Shown here in pieces: positions 19,465 to 54,483 of a stretch of DNA of 64,000 nucleotides (positions within the stretch are counted from its first letter, which is position 1; the number at the start of each line of letters is the position of its first letter). Made by a program: the position numbers and the translations under genes. The notes under the pieces were generated by a model. That model did no database searches. It saw nothing but the letters and a program-made list of their open reading frames with translations, and was not told the DNA's origin. This DNA comes from Clostridia bacterium (GTDB lineage: Bacteria; Bacillota; Clostridia; UBA1212; UBA1255): assembly GCA_045546695.1 (NCBI GenBank), contig JAZQDE010000008.1, forward strand, positions 27,782-91,781, in the 5' to 3' direction.

Positions 19465-22119
19465 ATGAAGCATTTTTTAAAGGAAACAGCAGATGTGTTA
19501 AAAGAATTTAACACTACGGAAAACGGATTGACTTCAGAAGAGGCTGCAAAAAGGGAAGAACAGTATGGTAAAAACAAGTTAAGAGAAGCTAAAAAGACTT
19601 CACTTATCAAAAGATTTTTCCAACAGCTTGCAGACCCGATGATCATTATCCTGATTGCTGCTGCAGCTATATCAGCAATTACTGCTACAATTGAAGGCGG
19701 CGAAGGTTATGCAGACGTAATTATTATTATGATCGTTGTTCTTATCAATGCAATCCTCGGCGTTGTACAGGAGAGCAAAGCAGAAGCTGCTATCGAAGCA
19801 CTTCAGCAGATGTCGGCAGCTACCAGCAAGGTTATGAGAAATGGTCATATTGCTATCGTTAAGAGCGAAGATCTTGTTCCGGGCGATATCGTATTATTAG
19901 AAGCCGGAGATGCTGTTCCTGCAGATGGTAGAATTATAGAATCAGCAAGCCTGAAGATAGAAGAAGCTGCTCTTACAGGTGAGAGTGTTCCTGTCAATAA
20001 ATTTGTTGATACTCTTGAAGAAGACGGCTCTGGCAAAGAAGTTCCGCTTGGTGACAGAAAGAATATGATTTATATGGGCAGCACCGTTGTTTATGGCCGC
20101 GGTAAAGCTGTTATCACTGAGATCGGTATGGATACAGAAATGGGTAAGATTGCTGATGCTCTTACTCAGGCTGAAGAAGGCAAGACTCCTTTGCAGATCA
20201 AGCTTGCTCAGTTGAGTAAAGTACTGACTTGGATTGTATTGGGTATCTGCTTATTTATTTTCGCATTCAATATTATTAAAGCCGGCGATTTCCATTTCAA
20301 GCCAATTCTTGAATCATTTATGGTGGCAGTAAGTCTTGCTGTTGCTGCTATTCCCGAAGGACTTGCGACAGTTGTTACAATCGTTCTTTCGATCGGTGTT
20401 ACGAAAATGTCAAAGCGTAATGCCATTATCCGTAAATTGACTGCTGTTGAGACACTTGGTTGTGCGCAGATTATCTGTAGCGATAAGACAGGTACTCTTA
20501 CACAGAACAAGATGACAGTAGTTGATCATTTTGGTGATGACGAATCGCTCCTTGCACGTGCTATGGCTCTTTGTAGTGATGCAGAGATTGAGCCTGAAAA
20601 GAATGAAGCGACAGGCGAGCCTACAGAATGTGCACTTGTAAACTATGCTAATTCTTTATCACTTCCAAAAGACAATCTTAAAGCTGAATATCCAAGAGTA
20701 GCAGAGCTTCCTTTTGACAGCATGAGAAAGATGATGTCCACATATCATTCATTCGACGGCAAAGTTATTCAGTATACAAAGGGTGCTCCTGACGAGATTC
20801 TCAAGAGATGTACATCATATATTGAAAATGGCGTTGTTCATGAAATGACAGAAGACTTCAGAAACAAGATTCTTGCGGCTAACAAAGCAATGGCTGACAA
20901 GGCATTGCGCGTTCTGAGCGCCTCAATGCGTGTTTATAACGCTGTTCCCGAAGAACCTACAACAGAAGCAAATGAATGTGATCTGACATTTATCGGCCTC
21001 ACAGGTATGATAGATCCTATCAGACCTGAAGTTAAAGATGCTATTACAGAATGTAAGGGCGCAGGTATCAGAGCTATTATGATTACAGGCGACCACAGAG
21101 ATACTGCTATTGCAATTGCAAAAGAGCTTGGTATCATCGAAGATGCTTCACAGGCTATCACAGGTGCTGAACTTAATGAGATCAGCGACGAAGAGCTTGA
21201 CAGACGTATTGCTGAGTTCGGCGTGTATGCAAGAGTACAGCCTGAACATAAGACACGTATTGTAAATGCATGGCGTAAAAATGGTTATATCACTGCCATG
21301 ACAGGTGATGGTGTAAACGACGCTCCAAGTATTAAAAATGCCGACATCGGTATCGGAATGGGTATTACAGGTACAGACGTTACAAAGAACGTTGCAGACA
21401 TGGTACTTGCTGATGACAACTTTGCTACAATCGTTGGCGCTGTAGATGAAGGACGTAGAATATACGACAACATCAGAAAAGCAATCCAGTTCCTGCTTGG
21501 CTCAAATATGAGTGAAGTTCTGAGTGTATTCTTTGCAAGCGTGTTTGGTTTTGTTATCTTAAAACCTGTACACCTTCTTTGGATTAACCTTATCACTGAC
21601 TGTTTCCCGGCACTTGCTTTAGGTGTTGAAAAGGGTGAGCCTGATCTCATGCAGAGAAAACCAAGAAATCCTAAAGATGGTATTTTCGCAGGTGGTCTCG
21701 GCGTTGACGTAGTATACCAGGGTCTTTTAGTATCAGTTCTTACCATACTTGCGTTTATGATCGGACATTTCTTTGAAAATGGCGCATTTACTTTAATGAA
21801 CATTTCTGAAAGCACACACGGTATGACAATGGCATTCCTTACAATGAGTATGGCAGAAGTATTCCACAGCTTTAACATGAGAAGCCAGCGTGGCAGTATC
21901 TTTAAGCTCAAGTCACAAAATAAGATTCTCTGGGCTGCCGGTATCCTCAGCTTACTTCTTACAACAGCCGTTATCGAGATTCCGTTCCTTGCAAACGCTT
22001 TCGGTTTTGCCGTTATCGGTTGGGAAGAGTATGCAATCGCTTTAGGTCTTGCAATTGCTGTAATTCCGATTGTTGAGATTGTTAAATTCTTCCAGAGACT
22101 TGTTAAAAAGAACAAATAA
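19465..22119 (+). CDS. P-type cation-transporting ATPase, type IIA (Ca2+/Mn2+).
   Basis: Phosphorylation motif CSDKTGTLTQN, hinge MTGDGVNDAPSIKNADIGIGMG, and 10 predicted TM helices. Length is 884 aa. Confidence 0.9.
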   Translation: MKHFLKETADVLKEFNTTENGLTSEEAAKREEQYGKNKLREAKKTSLIKRFFQQLADPMIIILIAAAAISAITATIEGGEGYADVIIIMIVVLINAILGVVQESKAEAAIEALQQMSAATSKVMRNGHIAIVKSEDLVPGDIVLLEAGDAVPADGRIIESASLKIEEAALTGESVPVNKFVDTLEEDGSGKEVPLGDRKNMIYMGSTVVYGRGKAVITEIGMDTEMGKIADALTQAEEGKTPLQIKLAQLSKVLTWIVLGICLFIFAFNIIKAGDFHFKPILESFMVAVSLAVAAIPEGLATVVTIVLSIGVTKMSKRNAIIRKLTAVETLGCAQIICSDKTGTLTQNKMTVVDHFGDDESLLARAMALCSDAEIEPEKNEATGEPTECALVNYANSLSLPKDNLKAEYPRVAELPFDSMRKMMSTYHSFDGKVIQYTKGAPDEILKRCTSYIENGVVHEMTEDFRNKILAANKAMADKALRVLSASMRVYNAVPEEPTTEANECDLTFIGLTGMIDPIRPEVKDAITECKGAGIRAIMITGDHRDTAIAIAKELGIIEDASQAITGAELNEISDEELDRRIAEFGVYARVQPEHKTRIVNAWRKNGYITAMTGDGVNDAPSIKNADIGIGMGITGTDVTKNVADMVLADDNFATIVGAVDEGRRIYDNIRKAIQFLLGSNMSEVLSVFFASVFGFVILKPVHLLWINLITDCFPALALGVEKGEPDLMQRKPRNPKDGIFAGGLGVDVVYQGLLVSVLTILAFMIGHFFENGAFTLMNISESTHGMTMAFLTMSMAEVFHSFNMRSQRGSIFKLKSQNKILWAAGILSLLLTTAVIEIPFLANAFGFAVIGWEEYAIALGLAIAVIPIVEIVKFFQRLVKKNK

Positions 22120-22145
22120 TTTAATGGTCTATTAAATAAATAAAT

Positions 22146-22177
22146 CAGTCCTGATCATACAGGGCTGATTTTTTTAT
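22146..22177. terminator. Bidirectional intrinsic terminator between the convergent ATPase and PHP genes.
   Basis: Hairpin cagtcctg-atcata-cagggctg followed by TTTTTTT, with an A-rich tract on the other side. Confidence 0.6.
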
Positions 22178-22193
22178 ATAGCAAGACAAATAA

Positions 22194-22985
22194 TTATATC
22201 TTATATCCAACAGGCTTTCTCTTTTTATAATAATAAAGCTCTGAAAAACCACATTTCTTGATTGCCTGAACGTGTTCAGTAAAAAGCTGACCGATTCGGT
22301 CTGTAGAATGTGCATCAGATCCGATTGTAAGGAGTTTTCCGCCTAATTCCTTATATCGTTTCAAAATATTAAAATCAAACGGAACTTTTCTATATGTACC
22401 CGTATTGATTTCAAGTGCAATATCTTTCTTTATAATAAACTTCAATATTTCATCAAAATACTCGGAAAACTCATTATAATAGAATTTAGGGTCCTCGAAA
22501 GGGGAGTAGCGTATCAGATAATCAATATGTCCGATACAATCGTAATCAGAATACAAGTTAATGTTTTTAATAATTTCCTCAAGATACTCTGAATAACTAT
22601 CTTGTTTAACAGAATCCGGTGAAAAGTAATTGTAATAATAAGGATCTTTTCTGTTAATCAAATGAGTCGATCCAATCTTATAATCAAAATCAAAACCGGA
22701 AGTTCTCTTAATAGTTTCATCAACAACATGAGGCTGCAGGCCGACTTCAACAGCTTTTATAATATCAAGCTTGTCTCCAAATTTTTCAATAATATTATCA
22801 ATCGTAGTAAAATACTCATTGAAGTCATAAAAGAAATCATCAGGATAATTAACGTAGTCGACGTCAAGATGATCTGTAAAAGCAATACCTGTTAAATTTT
22901 TATCAATTGCAACTAAGCAAGCCCGGTCCATAGACATCTGGCTGTCTGTAGAAAAATCAGAATGAGTGTGCATATCGTAAAACAT
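22194..22985 (-). CDS. PHP-domain metal-dependent phosphoesterase (histidinol-phosphatase HisJ-like family).
   Basis: N-terminus MFYDMHTHSDFS...IAFTDHLD carries the H-x-H and DH motifs of PHP/HisJ phosphatases. Confidence 0.7.
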   Translation of the reverse strand: MFYDMHTHSDFSTDSQMSMDRACLVAIDKNLTGIAFTDHLDVDYVNYPDDFFYDFNEYFTTIDNIIEKFGDKLDIIKAVEVGLQPHVVDETIKRTSGFDFDYKIGSTHLINRKDPYYYNYFSPDSVKQDSYSEYLEEIIKNINLYSDYDCIGHIDYLIRYSPFEDPKFYYNEFSEYFDEILKFIIKKDIALEINTGTYRKVPFDFNILKRYKELGGKLLTIGSDAHSTDRIGQLFTEHVQAIKKCGFSELYYYKKRKPVGYKI

Positions 22986-23177
22986 AAAAAAACCTCTGTA
23001 GGAAATTACCGATAAATATTACAATAATTTGACAGGGGATTCAAGTATATGTTATATTAAACCTGTTATGCAATTGCGCAAAATAATAATTTTGTATAAT
23101 TAGAGTACAGGTTTAAGCATGCTTTTGGAGGTATTATATCAAATATGTCCTTTTTTGCGCCATTACATTATAATCTA

Positions 23178-23501
23178 TTATAATAATAGATATACCAGTG
23201 CCAACATAATTAAATCAATATCTTTAGATTCTTTCTTATCAGAATTATTAGAATCTTTTGTATTTCTTTCAATCATAAATATAATTATTAATCCAATCAG
23301 AATTATGTCATCAAGCTCAATATTTATATTGAAATTTCTATTTAATACATTTTTTAATTTCTGCAGTACATTATTCGTGTTATCTTCTTTTTTTCGTGAA
23401 AAACTTTCTTTTTTATTTTTCTCCAATGAACGTACACTCATTGGAGAAATTTCTGTTGGATATGAAAAATTGTATTTTTTTACAATTCGGCGTCTTTTCA
23501 T
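23178..23501 (-). CDS. Hypothetical small protein with a basic N-terminus and a C-terminal TM helix. Third gene of a three-gene cassette.
   Basis: Start ATG overlaps the stop of the upstream ORF (ATGA). Lys/Asn-rich with hydrophobic IILIGLIIIFMI. The overlapping + strand ORF 23119..23505 is F/L/I-rich, the typical antisense of an AT-rich gene. Confidence 0.45.
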   Translation of the reverse strand: MKRRRIVKKYNFSYPTEISPMSVRSLEKNKKESFSRKKEDNTNNVLQKLKNVLNRNFNINIELDDIILIGLIIIFMIERNTKDSNNSDKKESKDIDLIMLALVYLLL

Positions 23502-23872
23502 TTAATTTCTACCATCTTAGCCAGAGTCAGCATCGTTACACAGTTTTTTATTTTGCTTTTTCTTTTGTCATTTAAAAACGGGCTTAGCGCATATAACAAT
23601 TTAATCTTATCGTCATTTTTAGCGAGCATTGTTGATTGTCTGTATTTATTCAGTAATTCAATTATTTTACTGATATCAATATCACCGGGCAGATCATTCT
23701 GATCATTACTTGTGTTTACGTTTTGTTCACAATTTATTTTGTCTAATTGTGAATTGTTATTACCAAGATTATTCAGAACGGAATTAACTATTTCATCCAT
23801 ATTATCCGGCAGCTCATTTAGTCCGAACAATGAGCCTATTTCCTTAATTTTATTATTAAGCTCAGCGTCCAT
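23498..23872 (-). CDS. Hypothetical small soluble protein (124 aa). Second gene of the cassette.
   Basis: Reading frame is open in a 30%-GC region where stops are frequent. 14-nt gap to the upstream ORF. No motif recognised. Confidence 0.5.
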   Translation of the reverse strand: MDAELNNKIKEIGSLFGLNELPDNMDEIVNSVLNNLGNNNSQLDKINCEQNVNTSNDQNDLPGDIDISKIIELLNKYRQSTMLAKNDDKIKLLYALSPFLNDKRKSKIKNCVTMLTLAKMVEIK

Positions 23873-23886
23873 ATAAATTCCTCCAA

Positions 23887-24192
23887 TTATTTTTTATTAT
23901 AAAGTATTTCATTAATTTTGCTCATAATCTGAGTCTGATTATTACCGGCAAGAACTTTAATTTTTTCAATATCCTGCGGAGATAAATTTTTACGAATACT
24001 TTCTAAATCGATATTCATTTCACGTATTTTTTCAGTATCAAGATCGTTTATTTTTTTCAAAAGTTCTTCACGGTTTACTTTAGATAGTTTTTGTGCAAGC
24101 TCCTGAGTTGATTTATTTTTTAATTCATTTAAACCGTACTCAATCTTATTAGCCATAATTTTGTTATCGATACTCTTTTTTATGTTTGACAT
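23887..24192 (-). CDS. Hypothetical coiled-coil small protein (101 aa). First gene of the cassette.
   Basis: Heptad-like K/E/L-rich sequence. An AT-rich promoter region lies upstream at 24193-24310. Confidence 0.5.
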   Translation of the reverse strand: MSNIKKSIDNKIMANKIEYGLNELKNKSTQELAQKLSKVNREELLKKINDLDTEKIREMNIDLESIRKNLSPQDIEKIKVLAGNNQTQIMSKINEILYNKK

Positions 24193-24310
24193 TATATGCC
24201 TCTGAAAATATGTCGTTTATGTTTTATTGTATGCTACTCTCCCCTTTCGTAGTTCATAATAAATTATAAAAACGGGAATATCTTCCAATTAAATATCCAA
24301 TAATAAGCTT

Positions 24311-24844
24311 ATGAAAAATTTTATTTATTTTGTAATATACAGTTTTATAGGGTTTATTATTGAAACATTATACCGGCTCGTTACAAAAGGTGTTTTTATG
24401 ATTAAAAAGTGCTTTTTGTTTAATTGTTTATGTCCGGTGTATGGTGTTGCTGCATTATTGATAATATATACAACACAAAATATTAAAAATAAGCCTTTGA
24501 CATTCTTGATCGGAAGCCTTGTATCAAGCGCAACAGAGCTGATTTTCGGTATGATTTATTTTAATTTACTGAATGTCAGAATCTGGAATTATTCTGATAT
24601 GTATTTAAACTTGTATGGCCATGTAAATCTGATTTATTCACTATTTTGGGGTATTTTATCATTAATTTTAGTATATAAAGTCCATCCGGTTGTAAAAAAT
24701 ATCGTCTCAGAAATTAAAATTCCAAAGTCAGTATTTGCTTGTATTATAATAATCTTTATAATTGACGTACTTTTCAGTAGTTTTTTCATGAAAAAATATA
24801 AAACAGCCAATGCTTTATCGCTCAGTTGGCTTATTAATCATTGA
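24311..24844 (+). CDS. Small polytopic membrane protein (DUF1113 / putative ABC-transporter type IV CmpB-like family).
   Basis: N-terminus FIYFVIYSFIGFIIETLY and 4-5 TM helices resemble PF06541-type proteins. This is a tentative call. Confidence 0.5.
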   Translation: MKNFIYFVIYSFIGFIIETLYRLVTKGVFMIKKCFLFNCLCPVYGVAALLIIYTTQNIKNKPLTFLIGSLVSSATELIFGMIYFNLLNVRIWNYSDMYLNLYGHVNLIYSLFWGILSLILVYKVHPVVKNIVSEIKIPKSVFACIIIIFIIDVLFSSFFMKKYKTANALSLSWLINH

Positions 24845-24910
24845 CTAATCTTAATTTAGGTTGTAAAATGTACAGGTATAAATTTTGTACTTAAATTTTG
24901 GAGGTTATTT

Positions 24911-25489: not shown

Positions 25490-25954
25490 ATGGGTTATTT
25501 ATCAGAAAGAGTTAGTTATTTAAGAGGCCTCGTTGATGGTCTTGGTATTGACAAGACTACAAAAGATGGCAAGATTTTAGATATTATCGTTGATTTACTC
25601 GACGATATGGCTATTTCAATTGAAGATGTTGAAGCATCAAACAACGATCTTCTCGAAGCAGCTGATGAGACAGATGAGAGACTTTGCGACATCGAAGATT
25701 ATCTTTATGATGAAGAAGACGAAGATGACGACGAGTGCGATTGCTGTGACTGCTGTGATTGCGAAGATTGCGAAGATTGCTATGCAGAAGTTGAATGCCC
25801 CGGCTGTGGCCAGGTAATTGAGCTTGAAGAAGTTCTTGCAGAAGGCGCTGATTCTATTATCTGCCCTAACTGCAAAGAAAAGATCGAAATCGAATGGGAA
25901 GACGACGAAGATGAATGTGATTGCGGTTGCTGCTGCCACTGTGAAGAAGAATAA
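25490..25954 (+). CDS. Highly acidic, cysteine-cluster-rich zinc-ribbon protein of unknown function, coupled to efp.
   Basis: Strong RBS GGAGGT 8 nt upstream, 21 nt after the efp stop. The helical N-terminal domain is followed by ECDCCDCCDCEDCEDC, a CPGCG...CPNC zinc ribbon, and CDCGCCCHCEEE. Confidence 0.7.
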   Translation: MGYLSERVSYLRGLVDGLGIDKTTKDGKILDIIVDLLDDMAISIEDVEASNNDLLEAADETDERLCDIEDYLYDEEDEDDDECDCCDCCDCEDCEDCYAEVECPGCGQVIELEEVLAEGADSIICPNCKEKIEIEWEDDEDECDCGCCCHCEEE

Positions 25955-51194: not shown

Positions 51195-52463
51195 TCAAAG
51201 ATATTTCTCAATATATTTTTTGCCATCGCCATAAGTGTCAATGATATAATCCATGTCTTTGTCGCCTCTGCCTGACAGACAAACAAGAATTGATCCTGTA
51301 TTGTGCGTTTTTGCATACTTAATAGCGTATGCAAGTGCATGTGAACTCTCAATAGCAGGAATAATACCTTCAAATCTTGACAACAGATAAAAAGCTTCAA
51401 GTGCTTCTTCATCATCAGCTGTAACATAATTAACTCTGCCACAGCTATGCAGATATGCGTGTTCAGGACCTGCAGCAGGATAATCAAGTCCGCTGGCAAC
51501 TGAATATACAGGAGCCGGCTCGCCATTTTCATCCTGAAGCATAATACTCTCAAAGCCATGCATAATGCCCTTTGTACCATATGTTATAGAAGCTGCATGA
51601 TCACCCATCTGTGTACCTCTTCCAAGAGGTTCAACTCCATAAATGTTTACAGGTTCATTTAAGAATGCTGAAAACATACCCATAGAGTTTGAGCCGCCTC
51701 CAACACAAGCAACAACATTATCAGGAAGAAGTCCTGTCATCTCAACGAATTGATCCTTTGCCTCATATCCTACAACTGACTGGAAATCTCTTACCATCAT
51801 CGGGAACGGATGCGGTCCTACGCATGAGCCGATACAATAAATAGCATCCTTATACTCATTTTTATATGCTTCAAATGCACTGTCAACAGCTTCTTTAAGC
51901 GTCTTAAGACCATGTGTAACCGGAACAACGTTTGCACCGAGGAGCTTCATTCTTGCAACGTTAGGTGCCTGTTTTGCGATATCTACTTCGCCCATATATA
52001 CGTCACATTCCATACCAAAATATGCAGCCGCAGTAGCGATAGCAACACCATGCTGTCCTGCACCTGTCTCTGCAATCAGCTTCTTTTTACCCATAAATTT
52101 TGCAAGTAAGCCTTCGCCCATGCAGTGATTGAGCTTATGTGCTCCTGTATGGTTCAAATCTTCTCTTTTAAGATAAATCTGACATTTTCCAAACAAATTG
52201 GAAAGTCTATCACAATGATATACAGGAGTAGGTCTTCCCTGGAATTCTTTTCTGATTCTTCTGAGCTCGCTTATGAACTTTGCACTGTGACAGATAGTTT
52301 CATAGCTGTCAGTAATTTCCTGCATAGCAACCTGCAGATCAGCAGGTAAAAAAGAACCGCCGAAATCACCGAATTTACCATCTTCTGACGGGAAATCTTT
52401 TAAATAATTATCAAAATCTTTATAAGTCTTTTTATCCATATATATTACCTCCGTTAAATTCAA
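51195..52463 (-). CDS. trpB: Tryptophan synthase beta-chain-type PLP enzyme (stand-alone TrpB).
   Basis: HTGAHKLNH carries the PLP lysine. GGGSNSMG and the glycine-rich loops are typical of TrpB. Preceded by a T-box leader. Confidence 0.75.
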
Positions 52464-52519: not shown

Positions 52520-52845
52520 CACCTCTTGTTAAAAAAAGTCTTTGTCCTTAAAACCATAGGACAAAGACTGATAATCTCTGCGGTGCCACCTAAATTGACG
52601 TTTGTCACGCCCACTCATTAGTATACAAACATATACTGTCCAACTTACGTATGGAAACACGTCGACCATTACTCGCTTTAATGCTTTCCTGTCGCCCTCA
52701 TAAGTCCATTCACAGATATAATGCATATAACCTCACACCGGCCGGCTACTCTCTGAAATGATAAACATCTGCTACTCTTCTTAATCACAGGTTTTCAATA
52801 TTCGATTTTTTTAATTAAACAACATTAAATATTCGTTGTCAAGCA
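52520..52845 (-). promoter_or_regulatory. T-box riboswitch leader (probably tRNA-Trp-responsive) with terminator, upstream of trpB.
   Basis: Minus-strand sequence AATTTAGGTGGCACCGCAGAG (reverse complement of 52566-52586) matches the T-box consensus AATTAGGGTGGTACCGCG. The terminator hairpin agtctttgtcc...ggacaaagact plus U-run is at 52520-52559. A candidate promoter (TTGACA -35 and TTTAAT -10 on the minus strand) is at about 52842-52814. Confidence 0.65.
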
Positions 52846-52854
52846 TTAAATTGA

Positions 52855-54483
52855 TTATTTTTTAATGAAAACCCGTCTGATTTTTGCCGGTAAAACAAGT
52901 GAAATATCCTCTTCGTCTATTCCCTTCAATTTATACATAACAAAGAAGTAAATAACGACACCGGCTATTGCTGCAAACACAAGAGAAATCAGCGAAGTAA
53001 TGTAATTATTAAATACTTTTTCACAAAGAAAATCAAAAAGCAGATATGCAAGACTTGCGCCGGCAATCATCACGCCTGATGACAGTACAGGTTTTAAAAT
53101 GAGCATCGCATGATCAATTTTAATATTTCTCTTTTTTATCATAAATATATGGTTTAAAATCATCGGAATGAGATACGAAATGTATGTTGCAAAGATAGCA
53201 CCATAAATATTTATTTCGGGAATAGCAATAAGGACATAGTTGAGAATCAACTTTACACTAACACCTATCGCCATAAATAACGTTGACGTGAAAAGTTGGT
53301 TTACGCTCTGCATTACTGAGCTTTGCAAGTGTACGATCGCTAGAAACAATACACTGAATGACATGTAACAAAGTAATTTGTATCCGTCTCCGAGACCAAG
53401 AATTGTATAAATCGGTTCAGCAAAAACACACATTGCGATTGATATCGGAATAGCAAGAATATAGCATAGTTTAAAGGCATAATTTGCTTTGTCCTTTGCT
53501 TCATCAAGCTTTTTCATTGCATATAAACCTGCAATAACAGGAAGAAGACTGATACACAAAGAACTTACAAGTGCATTAGGCACGTTTAATACTTGTCTTG
53601 TTGCCCCCATCATTCCATGAAGTGCTCTGGCATTAACATCTGAAAAACCTGCAACAATCAATCTCCCTTTTAAAACAGAAGTATCTATCATGTTTCCGCC
53701 ATATTGAATACCGGAGTTTATTGTAATCGGAAGGCTGTAAAATAATATTCTGAGCAGAAGCTGTTTAGTTGACATCTTATCGGACTGAATCTCATTGTGA
53801 GTCATCAGATAACGATCTTCATTGTTTTTATATGCAAGATAGTATTTATATACAATCAGCAAAGCGACAATTGCACCTGCAAGTGTACCTATTGAACCGC
53901 CTGCAACCGCCCATTCGATTCCCTTTCCTCTTAAAACAAGTATCATGATAAGAGCAACAATTACGTGAACAATCTGTTCTACTACTTGTGAAAGCGCGGT
54001 CGGGGTCATGTTCTTCATGCCCTGCAGATATCCTCTGTACGCACTCAGAAGTGAACAAGTAAGTACTGTTGGTCCTAAAAACATTACACCAAGCCAGCAA
54101 TCTTCGTTGTTCATGAGTCTTGCAATCGGCTTTGCATATATCATCATCAAGGAACCAAAAATCGTTCCGATAACAAGCATTATTCTGCGACACATAAGGA
54201 ATGCCTGCTTTGCCTGTGCTCTGTTTTCAGTGGATGTGAGTTCTGTAACAAGTTTTGATATTGCAACAGGAAGTCCGGCTGTTGTCAGTACGTAAACAAA
54301 TGAAAAAACCTGGTTTGCAGAATAATATATACTGTAATTTTCACTTCCGTCAAGAAGCATTATTACTACAGGTACAAAAATCAGAGATAATGCCTTGACT
54401 AATATGTTTGAAACAGACAGTACAACGAAGCCCCTGCCCATAGATTGCTCTTTTATGTTGTTTTCATTAGAGAATAATCCCAT
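52855..54483 (-). CDS. MOP-superfamily polysaccharide/oligosaccharide flippase (Wzx/SpoVB-like).
   Basis: 14 predicted TM helices. The N-terminus ...VVLSVSNILVKALSLIFVPVV... is typical of the polysaccharide biosynthesis protein family. Confidence 0.7.
   Translation of the reverse strand: MGLFSNENNIKEQSMGRGFVVLSVSNILVKALSLIFVPVVIMLLDGSENYSIYYSANQVFSFVYVLTTAGLPVAISKLVTELTSTENRAQAKQAFLMCRRIMLVIGTIFGSLMMIYAKPIARLMNNEDCWLGVMFLGPTVLTCSLLSAYRGYLQGMKNMTPTALSQVVEQIVHVIVALIMILVLRGKGIEWAVAGGSIGTLAGAIVALLIVYKYYLAYKNNEDRYLMTHNEIQSDKMSTKQLLLRILFYSLPITINSGIQYGGNMIDTSVLKGRLIVAGFSDVNARALHGMMGATRQVLNVPNALVSSLCISLLPVIAGLYAMKKLDEAKDKANYAFKLCYILAIPISIAMCVFAEPIYTILGLGDGYKLLCYMSFSVLFLAIVHLQSSVMQSVNQLFTSTLFMAIGVSVKLILNYVLIAIPEINIYGAIFATYISYLIPMILNHIFMIKKRNIKIDHAMLILKPVLSSGVMIAGASLAYLLFDFLCEKVFNNYITSLISLVFAAIAGVVIYFFVMYKLKGIDEEDISLVLPAKIRRVFIKK

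Follow-up and report, generated by a model that had tools for sequence, protein, structure and literature searches.

The coat basement layer of Bacillus subtilis and Clostridioides difficile spores, formed by SpoVM, SpoIVA and SpoVID (SipL), consists of small components that the mother cell makes under sigmaE/sigmaK-type promoters; its soluble morphogenetic partners are attached to the outer forespore membrane through a short membrane anchor, which is either hydrophobic or amphipathic. Other sets of small genes, namely yabP-yabQ, yqfC-yqfD and cotJA-cotJB-cotJC, are confined to endospore-formers and driven by mother-cell promoters, their mechanism being unknown. Endospore formation is far less mapped in clostridia than in Bacillus and, to our knowledge, many of the Bacillus coat and envelope assembly factors have no clostridial counterpart.

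Three small genes, pA, pB and pC, were analysed in a window, i.e. the whole 64-kb stretch of DNA from a Clostridia bacterium under study. Their positions, together with that of one ribosome-binding site, are as follows:

23887..24192, minus strand: pA, gene 1 of the operon, 101 aa, K/E-rich and all-helical in its model (ORF listing)
23498..23872, minus strand: pB, 124 aa, soluble, member of a large undescribed family (ORF listing and profile search)
23178..23501, minus strand: pC, 107 aa, with a basic N-terminus and a predicted C-terminal hydrophobic hairpin (ORF listing)
23880..23884, minus strand: GGAGG, Shine-Dalgarno of pB, 7 nt ahead of the pB ATG (read from the sequence)

A gap of 14 nt separates pA from pB, while the pB stop and the pC start share 4 nt (ATGA); the three packed minus-strand ORFs of the initial annotation are the same as those of the ORF listing. 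The DNA of the trio, put at about 30% GC in that annotation, has 26-30%, and the values across 23000-24400 were 24-29%, vs. ~40% in the flanks. Both neighbours it had named were also found: a PHP/HisJ-family gene (22194..22985, minus strand), located 192 nt downstream of the trio, and a divergent upstream gene (24311..24844) for a membrane protein of PF06541 (CmpB, formerly DUF1113). Concerning the PHP gene, its membership of the operon was rejected, because it has a sigmaA-like promoter of its own and because a rhamnosidase gene is interposed between it and the trio in one close relative (L004).

pA, pB and pC are genuine, coupled genes that evolve under purifying selection, stay together as a unit and fit no curated family. 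Sequence searches recovered orthologues of all three ORFs at 52-79% identity, with ranges of 67-98% for pA and 52-95% for pC, and the dN/dS values were 0.08-0.15 for pA, 0.11-0.13 for pB and 0.21-0.41 for pC. Together with the syntenic trio in relatives, these figures agree with the earlier view that the ORFs are more than random AT-rich frames. That view also held that no family could be recognised for any of the three proteins, and this stands for the distant members as well. The window proteins had no match at the curated cutoffs of Pfam-A 2025 and NCBIfam 20.0; 62 pB-family members had none in Pfam, NCBIfam or the PDB; and the distant versions of pA and pC had none at cutoff in Pfam or NCBIfam. 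The best matches in all these scans were chance-level helical families. PDB sequence-profile searches with pB and pA returned only chance matches or designed helical repeats. The PADLOC scan of the trio gave 0 matches and PHROGs nothing meaningful, no relatives were present in a scan of 2.9 million viral contigs, and no description of a pA-pB-pC operon was found in the literature.

As a whole, the pB family comprises 163 representatives of 50%-identity clusters, mostly full-length and of 100-160 aa, as retrieved by an exhaustive profile search (E<=1e-3), from which a 62-sequence alignment (A4) was made. Loci were found by a genome scan led by a central member of the family; a scan with the close alignment A1 matched nothing. 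A small helical protein, followed by pB and then by a protein ending in the pC hallmark, was encoded in this order in ~57 loci of distant Clostridia, belonging to Acetivibrio, Ruminiclostridium, Pseudobacteroides, Oscillospiraceae and Clostridium-type metagenome-assembled genomes (MAGs). The co-occurrence of the trio in related Clostridia, raised as a check in the initial annotation, is thereby established. A pA homologue lies directly upstream of pB in ~47 of 51 loci (E 1e-16 to 1e-58), and a pC-type ORF of like architecture directly downstream in nearly all loci, with gaps of -62 to +44 nt. Six additional distant pB branches (L052, L054, L056-L059) all display a small helical gene, pB and a gene with a pC-hallmark end, and the synteny is stable on the chromosome across species. 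The cassette, described from the outset as translationally coupled, is one coupled unit: pA-pB-pC is a single operon, shared by spore-forming clostridial orders, that encodes three undescribed protein families. Most loci come from MAGs, and the distribution in spore-formers rests on the named carriers Acetivibrio, Ruminiclostridium and Pseudobacteroides, which we take to be spore-forming genera.

As for the immediate surroundings of the trio in other genomes, tiny Cys/Gly-rich hydrophobic ORFs were observed just upstream of it in some loci.

The architecture of pB and pC can be broken down into the following features:

23801..23872, minus strand: pB N-terminal motif MDAELNNKIKEIGSLFGLNELPDN, consensus MxxDLxxKIKQIxxxLGxxxxPDN, invariant in A1 and conserved in A4 and A5
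23693..23764, minus strand: pB N/D/E-rich low-complexity linker, residues 37-60, predicted to be disordered (pLDDT <50)
23507..23674, minus strand: pB C-terminal three-helix module, residues 67-122, with NDDKIKLLYALSPFLNDKRKSKIKNCVTMLTLAKMV, confident in the model
23466..23501, minus strand: pC basic N-terminus MKRRRIVKKYNF; residues 1-40 hold 13 K/R and 5 D/E
23268..23312, minus strand: pC hydrophobic segment 1 with its acidic cap, DDIILIGLIIIFMIE, a hydropathy peak; [DE][DE]hhLhGLIxLLhxE is kept in 52 distinct tails
23214..23267, minus strand: pC charged loop RNTKDSNNSDKKESKDID, between the hydrophobic segments
23181..23213, minus strand: pC hydrophobic segment 2, LIMLALVYLLL, at the extreme C-terminus, a hydropathy peak; hLLIhLhYLLL is kept in the 52 tails

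For pA, AF2 gives a low-confidence model (pLDDT 68, pTM 0.26) made up entirely of helices, several of them short; of the K/E-rich coiled coil initially proposed, the K/E-richness holds, the coiled coil being conjectural. The N-terminal motif of pB was modelled with moderate confidence as a helix and a turn. Its linker varies from ~20 to >100 residues across the family and is highly variable in sequence; long pB homologues, considered as possible fusions, merely have longer low-complexity linkers. In pC, the basic N-terminus had been correctly noted, but the single C-terminal TM helix gives way to two short hydrophobic segments, the hydropathy profile having two peaks of ~11-12 residues each (66-77 and 97-107) separated by the charged 18-residue loop. 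Each segment is too short for a canonical, bilayer-crossing transmembrane helix, and the membrane insertion and topology of pC are therefore uncertain. In most lineages, the loop is a short acidic IEDE-type turn, and its expansion to 12-18 residues is confined to the window clade and L047/L048. Distant pC proteins have comparable R/K/Y-rich N-termini (MxYRKRPP..RRY and similar), and the N-terminal region of the Clostridium-type pC (L052) is rich in Tyr/Pro/Ser, a composition typical of coat proteins.

Two candidate promoter elements were located upstream of the operon:

24225..24233, minus strand: candidate -10 box for a mother-cell sigma factor, CATACAATA, with CATAcAnT at 24226..24233, lying 41 nt ahead of the pA start codon
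24252..24253, minus strand: AC, candidate sigmaK-type -35, 18 nt upstream of the -10 box

Of 17 dereplicated lineages, 9 have a strict CATA[ACG]A[ACT]T box ahead of the trio, vs. 6 of 157 control intergenic upstream regions (3.8%; Fisher p about 3e-7). The leading C of CATA is shared even by lineages in which the rest of the intergenic DNA can no longer be aligned. An AC occurs at 16-18 nt from the box in the window clade (L001-L006, N18), in L047/L048 (N17) and in L052 (N16), a two-base element being weak evidence in itself; the promoter candidates read AC-N18-CATACAATA in the window, where the 18-nt spacer is at the long end for sigmaK, and AC-N16-CATACAATA in L052. Acetivibrionales-type loci have sigmaE-like -35 candidates (TCATAwn-N13 and ACATAwT-N15). 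In C. difficile, the consensus -35 is ATA for sigmaE and AC for sigmaK, with a common -10 of the CATATTAT/CATATAAT type (PMC3789822), and the putative -35 classes and -10 box of the trio match this consensus.

On these sequence features, we put at about even probability the reading that we favour, namely that, in sporulation, the mother cell expresses the operon under a sigmaK/sigmaE-type promoter and that its products form an undescribed membrane-anchored small-protein complex of the spore envelope. This reading gains support from the promoter box, from SleB- and GerM-like neighbours and from the distribution in spore-forming genera. In 23 loci, the same-strand DNA downstream of the trio includes a gene for a SleB-type cortex hydrolase (Hydrolase_2 + PG_binding_1), and in 19 a GerM-like Germane lipoprotein gene lies near the trio; both linkages were seen only in Acetivibrionales-type loci and could be inherited synteny. 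A sporulation or division accessory complex was among the roles first suggested for the trio, of which the sporulation half draws on the same box, neighbours and genera, while nothing was found in favour of division.

A somewhat unlikely alternative is a role in vegetative growth or general stress (e.g. envelope homeostasis) for a conserved module of small membrane-associated proteins, served by the housekeeping sigma factor, the CATA box and the sporulation neighbours being coincidental or lineage-specific. Neither the 64-kb window nor the flanks of its nearest relatives (L001-L004, L047, L048) contain an unambiguous sporulation gene, the sole hint being the SpoVB-like flippase of the window, which scores 200 bits, below its 372-bit cutoff; the neighbours in the window clade are of the housekeeping kind (efp, Ca-ATPase, and PHP/HisJ and CmpB family genes). 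The divergent neighbour in four distant loci is likewise a Metallophos_2 phosphoesterase gene, not a sporulation gene. At the promoter, the strict box is missing ahead of pA in 8 of the 17 lineages, among them the Acetivibrio, Pseudobacteroides and L027-type groups, and the TACAAT within the box would be a fair sigmaA -10. However, no sigmaA -35 accompanies it; where a -35 is expected, the lineages have suitably spaced ATA- or AC-type candidates rather than TTGACA, and a vegetative role would also leave aside the conserved leading C, the strong enrichment of the box over control upstream regions, the linkage to SleB and GerM in 19-23 loci, and named carriers that all belong to presumed spore-forming genera.

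The two other roles initially proposed fare less well. That the trio is a membrane-anchored anti-sigma or regulatory module, in which the pC anchor would sequester a regulator and pA and pB would be partner or antagonist, is very improbable, since a sigma-factor or transcription-factor gene is never a conserved neighbour in ~60 loci and since no anti-sigma, STAS or kinase family was matched. A horizontally acquired toxin-antitoxin-like, defence or mobile-element cassette would suit small, overlapping genes lying in a block (22000..24900) of 24-33% GC between flanks of ~40%; yet the PHP and CmpB genes, of housekeeping type, share the low GC, which also agrees with a K/N/E/I-rich composition, and integrase genes, repeats and tRNA genes are absent at the borders. 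With the defence, phage and viral-contig searches empty, as reported above, with the chromosomal synteny constant across species, and with the trio kept across orders under purifying selection, we regard such a cassette as extremely unlikely. Finally, the idea entertained earlier, that in such AT-rich DNA the three frames are open by chance or that the plus-strand ORF 23119..23505 is the real gene, has a practically negligible probability: this 128-aa antisense frame does stay open in the closest relatives, but it is broken in distant loci and is a compositional by-product, 27% of the synonymous resamplings of pC still leaving 100 aa or more open in antisense, whereas the minus-strand proteins are kept across orders down to 25-50% identity, motifs included, with dN/dS well below 1.

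Returning to the mother-cell reading, we infer sporulation-specific expression, membrane insertion, complex formation and an envelope role for the trio. The C-terminal hairpin of pC, with its two short acid-capped hydrophobic helices, would be inserted in a membrane, plausibly the outer forespore membrane, leaving the basic Tyr/Arg/Lys-rich N-terminal tail in the mother-cell cytoplasm. Through translational coupling, pB would be made in a fixed ratio to pC; it may bind via its C-terminal three-helix module and/or its N-terminal helix, with the acidic disordered linker as a spacer, and pA may be a small helical-repeat partner. The trio could then act as a membrane-anchored scaffold or adaptor, either for the assembly of the spore envelope (coat/cortex) or for readying the germination apparatus.

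Conserved across several orders, preceded in many lineages by a putative mother-cell-type promoter and missing from all curated libraries, the trio is a concrete candidate for a missing clostridial sporulation function, and its carriers include cultivable, genetically tractable genera (Ruminiclostridium and Acetivibrio). The three new protein families and their hallmarks, now defined, would make it possible to group thousands of 'hypothetical protein' annotations. Should the link to sporulation prove wrong, the trio would still form a small-protein complex that is widespread and associated with membranes.

Concerning likeness to described proteins, the Clostridium-type equivalent of pA in L052 aligns weakly to profile positions 66-98 of YlbD_coat (PF14071), a putative B. 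subtilis coat protein (E 0.0076); this match was rejected as chance, its 16.9 bits being below the 27-bit gathering threshold and only 2 of 32 pA-like sequences reaching E<=1. pC shares short, very hydrophobic L/I-rich segments with the YjcZ-type tiny sporulation proteins and with TatA-like helices, but it has no NCBIfam or Pfam match at E<=1 and differs by its long polar N-terminal region and its acid-capped double segment. The yabP-yabQ, yqfC-yqfD and cotJA-cotJB-cotJC sets are likewise compact small-protein operons with one membrane-embedded member, although gene sizes and motifs differ and the trio matches none of their families (Pfam/NCBIfam, E<=1).

For the SpoVM/SpoIVA/SpoVID(SipL) system, a functional analogy is proposed, with pC in the place of the anchor and pB and pA in that of the soluble partners; it is drawn from promoter and architecture and involves neither a sequence or fold relationship nor a family match. 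SpoVM consists of one amphipathic helix of 26 residues; pC, by contrast, has a pair of 11-12-residue hydrophobic segments with an acidic loop between them, and the trio has no ATPase partner like SpoIVA. In its boldest form, which we consider distinctly unlikely, the proposal is that of an unrecognised, Clostridia-wide morphogenetic module of the spore envelope, where pC would be a new membrane-targeting element, an acid-capped hairpin with its half-length hydrophobic helices lying in one leaflet and marking the forespore surface, and would bring in pB and pA to build a scaffold tied to SleB deployment or to coat attachment. In function, such a module would correspond to SpoVM-type anchoring, and it would have no equivalent in Bacilli.

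The initial annotation placed three small ORFs on the minus strand, packed with a 14-nt gap followed by an ATGA overlap, and the ORF listing matches this arrangement exactly:

24192..23887, minus strand: pA, ORF of 101 aa
23872..23498, minus strand: pB, ORF of 124 aa
23501..23178, minus strand: pC, ORF of 107 aa

GGAGG lies 7 nt ahead of the pB start, within the pA-pB gap, and the ATGA is shared by pB and pC. All three are real genes. Codon-level comparison with two orthologous loci gave dN/dS values of 0.08-0.15 for pA, 0.11-0.13 for pB and 0.21-0.41 for pC, which are approximate because dS is near saturation; the lowest orthologue identities were 67, 54 and 52%, respectively. On the plus strand, the ORF 23119..23505, earlier raised as the alternative, is interrupted in distant loci, and at least 100 aa remained open opposite pC in 27% of synonymous resamplings of pC; this ORF is a by-product of K/E/N-rich, AT-biased sense codons. 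The GC content of the trio is 24-29% vs. about 40% in its flanks. A larger low-GC block (22000..24900, 24-33% vs. about 40% in the flanks) spans the downstream phosphoesterase gene, the trio and the upstream CmpB-family gene; no signs of mobile elements were seen in it, and its low GC may be a mere effect of amino-acid composition.

The trio does co-occur as a unit in related Clostridia, the pA-pB-pC order recurring in close relatives, in scan loci and in six distant branches. The close relatives share the order CmpB(-), pA, pB, pC, PHP, Ca-ATPase(-), and two MAGs have it too: L048 (Oscillospiraceae) and L047 (Clostridia, buffalo gut). Genome scanning with a central pB-family sequence as lead query gave 45 loci; their carriers include Acetivibrio mesophilus, A. 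straminisolvens, Ruminiclostridium papyrosolvens, R. cellobioparum, R. hungatei and Pseudobacteroides. Local HMMs place a pA homologue (E 1e-16 to 1e-58) directly before pB in some 47 of 51 loci, and in nearly all loci an ORF of 100-137 aa begins within a few tens of nt of the pB stop. As for the six further pB-family branches sampled singly, including the Clostridium-type (L052) and long-linker (L054, L058) ones, all possess the three-gene layout. In the farthest branches, the proteins encoded ahead of pB have only borderline similarity to pA and were treated as its positional equivalents. Several clades retain the translational coupling.

Both neighbours proposed from the sequence were found in place: the DUF1113-like gene divergent upstream is a PF06541 (CmpB) membrane-protein gene, and the downstream phosphoesterase belongs to the PHP/HisJ family.

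22985..22194, minus strand: PHP/HisJ-family phosphoesterase gene (PHP), 192 nt downstream of the trio
23204..23177, minus strand: near-consensus sigmaA promoter, TTGGCA-16-TATAAT (11/12 matches), within the final pC codons and directed towards PHP

Since this putative promoter faces PHP, the gene would form a separate transcription unit; independent transcription is thus suggested, and a rhamnosidase gene between pC and PHP in the close relative L004 is consistent with it. The phosphoesterase near the trio differs by lineage, PHP being downstream in the window clade and a Metallophos_2 (PF12850) gene directly upstream, on the opposite strand, in four distant lineages (L054, L056, L057 and L058). 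The conserved neighbours in Acetivibrionales-type loci are as follows:

Downstream, same strand: SleB-type hydrolase (Hydrolase_2 + PG_binding_1), 23 loci
Upstream, opposite strand: GerM-like Germane lipoprotein, 19 loci
Downstream, opposite strand: Tex, 34 loci
Upstream, opposite strand: Thioredoxin reductase fusion, 32 loci

No family had been recognised for any of the three proteins, and this view held: against Pfam, NCBIfam, PADLOC and PHROGs, neither the window proteins, nor 62 diverse pB relatives, nor distant pA and pC versions had a match at or near threshold. PDB-sequence profile searches gave only chance or designed-repeat matches, source annotations read 'hypothetical protein' throughout, and no description of the operon was found in the literature searched. 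A weak YlbD_coat match of one Clostridium-type pA equivalent (16.9 bits) was rejected for want of recurrence, with only 2 of 32 sequences matching. The trio proteins are covered by no curated family, and three new families were defined.

With the pB alignment as query, an exhaustive HMMER search (E<=1e-3) yielded 163 representatives of 50%-identity clusters, nearly all of 100-160 aa and matched over their full length. Three parts make up the family alignment: the motif MxxDLxxKIKQIxxxLGxxxxPDN at the N-terminus, a low-complexity, acidic linker whose length varies widely, and the block NDPRIxLLxALKPFLxxxRQxKxxNCIxxL at the C-terminus.

Concerning pC, the annotated basic N-terminus stood: it is often Tyr-rich as well (MKRRRIVKKYNF in the window, MxYRKRPP..RRY elsewhere) and strongly Tyr/Pro/Ser-rich in the Clostridium type. 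The 'single C-terminal TM helix' did not. Alignment of 52 distinct C-termini gave the order [DE][DE]hhLhGLIxLLhxE, a short acidic loop (typically IEDE) and hLLIhLhYLLL, the last at or near the C-terminus. The acidic segment is enlarged to 12-18 charged residues in the window clade and L047/L048, which identifies it as a loop and the two hydrophobic stretches as distinct elements. As each stretch spans 11-12 residues by hydropathy peaks, fewer than a canonical transmembrane helix needs, the C-terminus is better described as a predicted hairpin formed by a pair of short, acid-capped hydrophobic helices.

pC also contains, at 23418..23449 (minus strand), a perfect inverted repeat of 12-13 nt, TTTCTCCAATGA-N8-TCATTGGAGAAA, in the codons for EISPMSVRSLEKN, with a predicted RNA hairpin of -16 to -21 kcal/mol. 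Between the window and the close relatives L001-L003, its stem codons have no synonymous differences, vs. about 62% divergence at the gene's synonymous sites; L004, L047 and L048 lack the repeat. It may act as an mRNA structure or as a palindrome bound by a protein.

A candidate promoter precedes pA, and matching sites in other lineages lie in intergenic DNA that is otherwise unalignable:

24233..24225, minus strand: candidate -10 box CATACAATA, 41 nt upstream of the pA start
24253..24252, minus strand: AC dinucleotide, 18 nt further upstream
L047/L048: AC-N17-CATA(C/G)AAT
L052: AC-N16-CATACAATA
L007/L008/L018/L049 (Acetivibrionales-type loci): TCATAwn-N13-CATAGACT
Ruminiclostridium-type: ACATAwT-N15-CATA(C/A)ACT

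In C. difficile, the sigmaE and sigmaK -10 sequences are very similar, with canonical boxes CATATTAT/CATATAAT, and the difference lies at -35, where sigmaE has ATA and sigmaK has AC, the same as in B. subtilis (PMC3789822). With loci dereplicated to 17 lineages, the strict motif occurred at -160..-20 of the first gene in 9 lineages vs. 6 of the 157 remaining upstream intergenic regions in these loci (Fisher p ~3e-7); a further three lineages carry CATATAAT/CATATAGT boxes, left out by the strict pattern. No clear box match was found upstream in the Acetivibrio, Pseudobacteroides and L027-type groups, so that the putative sigmaE/K-type signal is strong but not universal. In many Acetivibrionales-type loci, the trio is closely preceded by tiny, very hydrophobic ORFs on the same strand (L023 4219..4494, plus strand, with equivalents in 17 loci; L008 3616..3987, plus strand, in 7). 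Some are Cys/Gly-rich, others have two LLFFIIIFLLLFY-type segments, and none matched a family; they may share the trio's transcription unit where no box directly precedes pA.

The window genes are otherwise housekeeping, with a sole sporulation-flavoured exception:

52855..54483, minus strand: SpoVB-like flippase (542 aa), best match stage V sporulation protein B (TIGR02900), 200 bits, far under the 372-bit equivalog cutoff

Adjoining efp, a 154-aa protein (25490..25954, plus strand) begins with a CD1247 domain (68.8 bits against a cutoff of 30), followed by an extremely acidic, Cys-rich tail with runs of CDCC/CEDC, and keeps its position in relatives. A 422-aa gene (52463..51195) is preceded by a T-box leader (52554..52797, minus strand; 112.8 bits against a gathering score of 93).

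From these sequence data, the chances that the trio acts in sporulation appear even. The best-supported reading would be a mother-cell-expressed, membrane-anchored small-protein complex acting on the spore envelope, in which pC would be the membrane anchor, pB its stoichiometric partner and pA a helical-repeat partner; the path to an envelope assembly complex, starting from the operon's conservation and its sigmaE/K-type box, is inferred, and any specific anchoring mechanism is far less probable. The main rival, a vegetative or general membrane-associated module, seems rather unlikely. An anti-sigma module, a toxin-antitoxin/defence cassette (no match at or near threshold in PADLOC and PHROGs) and chance ORFs (dN/dS of 0.08-0.41 across the three genes) are poorly supported or refuted. 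For clostridial sporulation biology, the trio offers a solid lead that can be tested. As a small mother-cell sporulation module, it would be alike in kind, without homology, to SpoVM-type anchoring, the yabP-yabQ operon and the cotJ operon.
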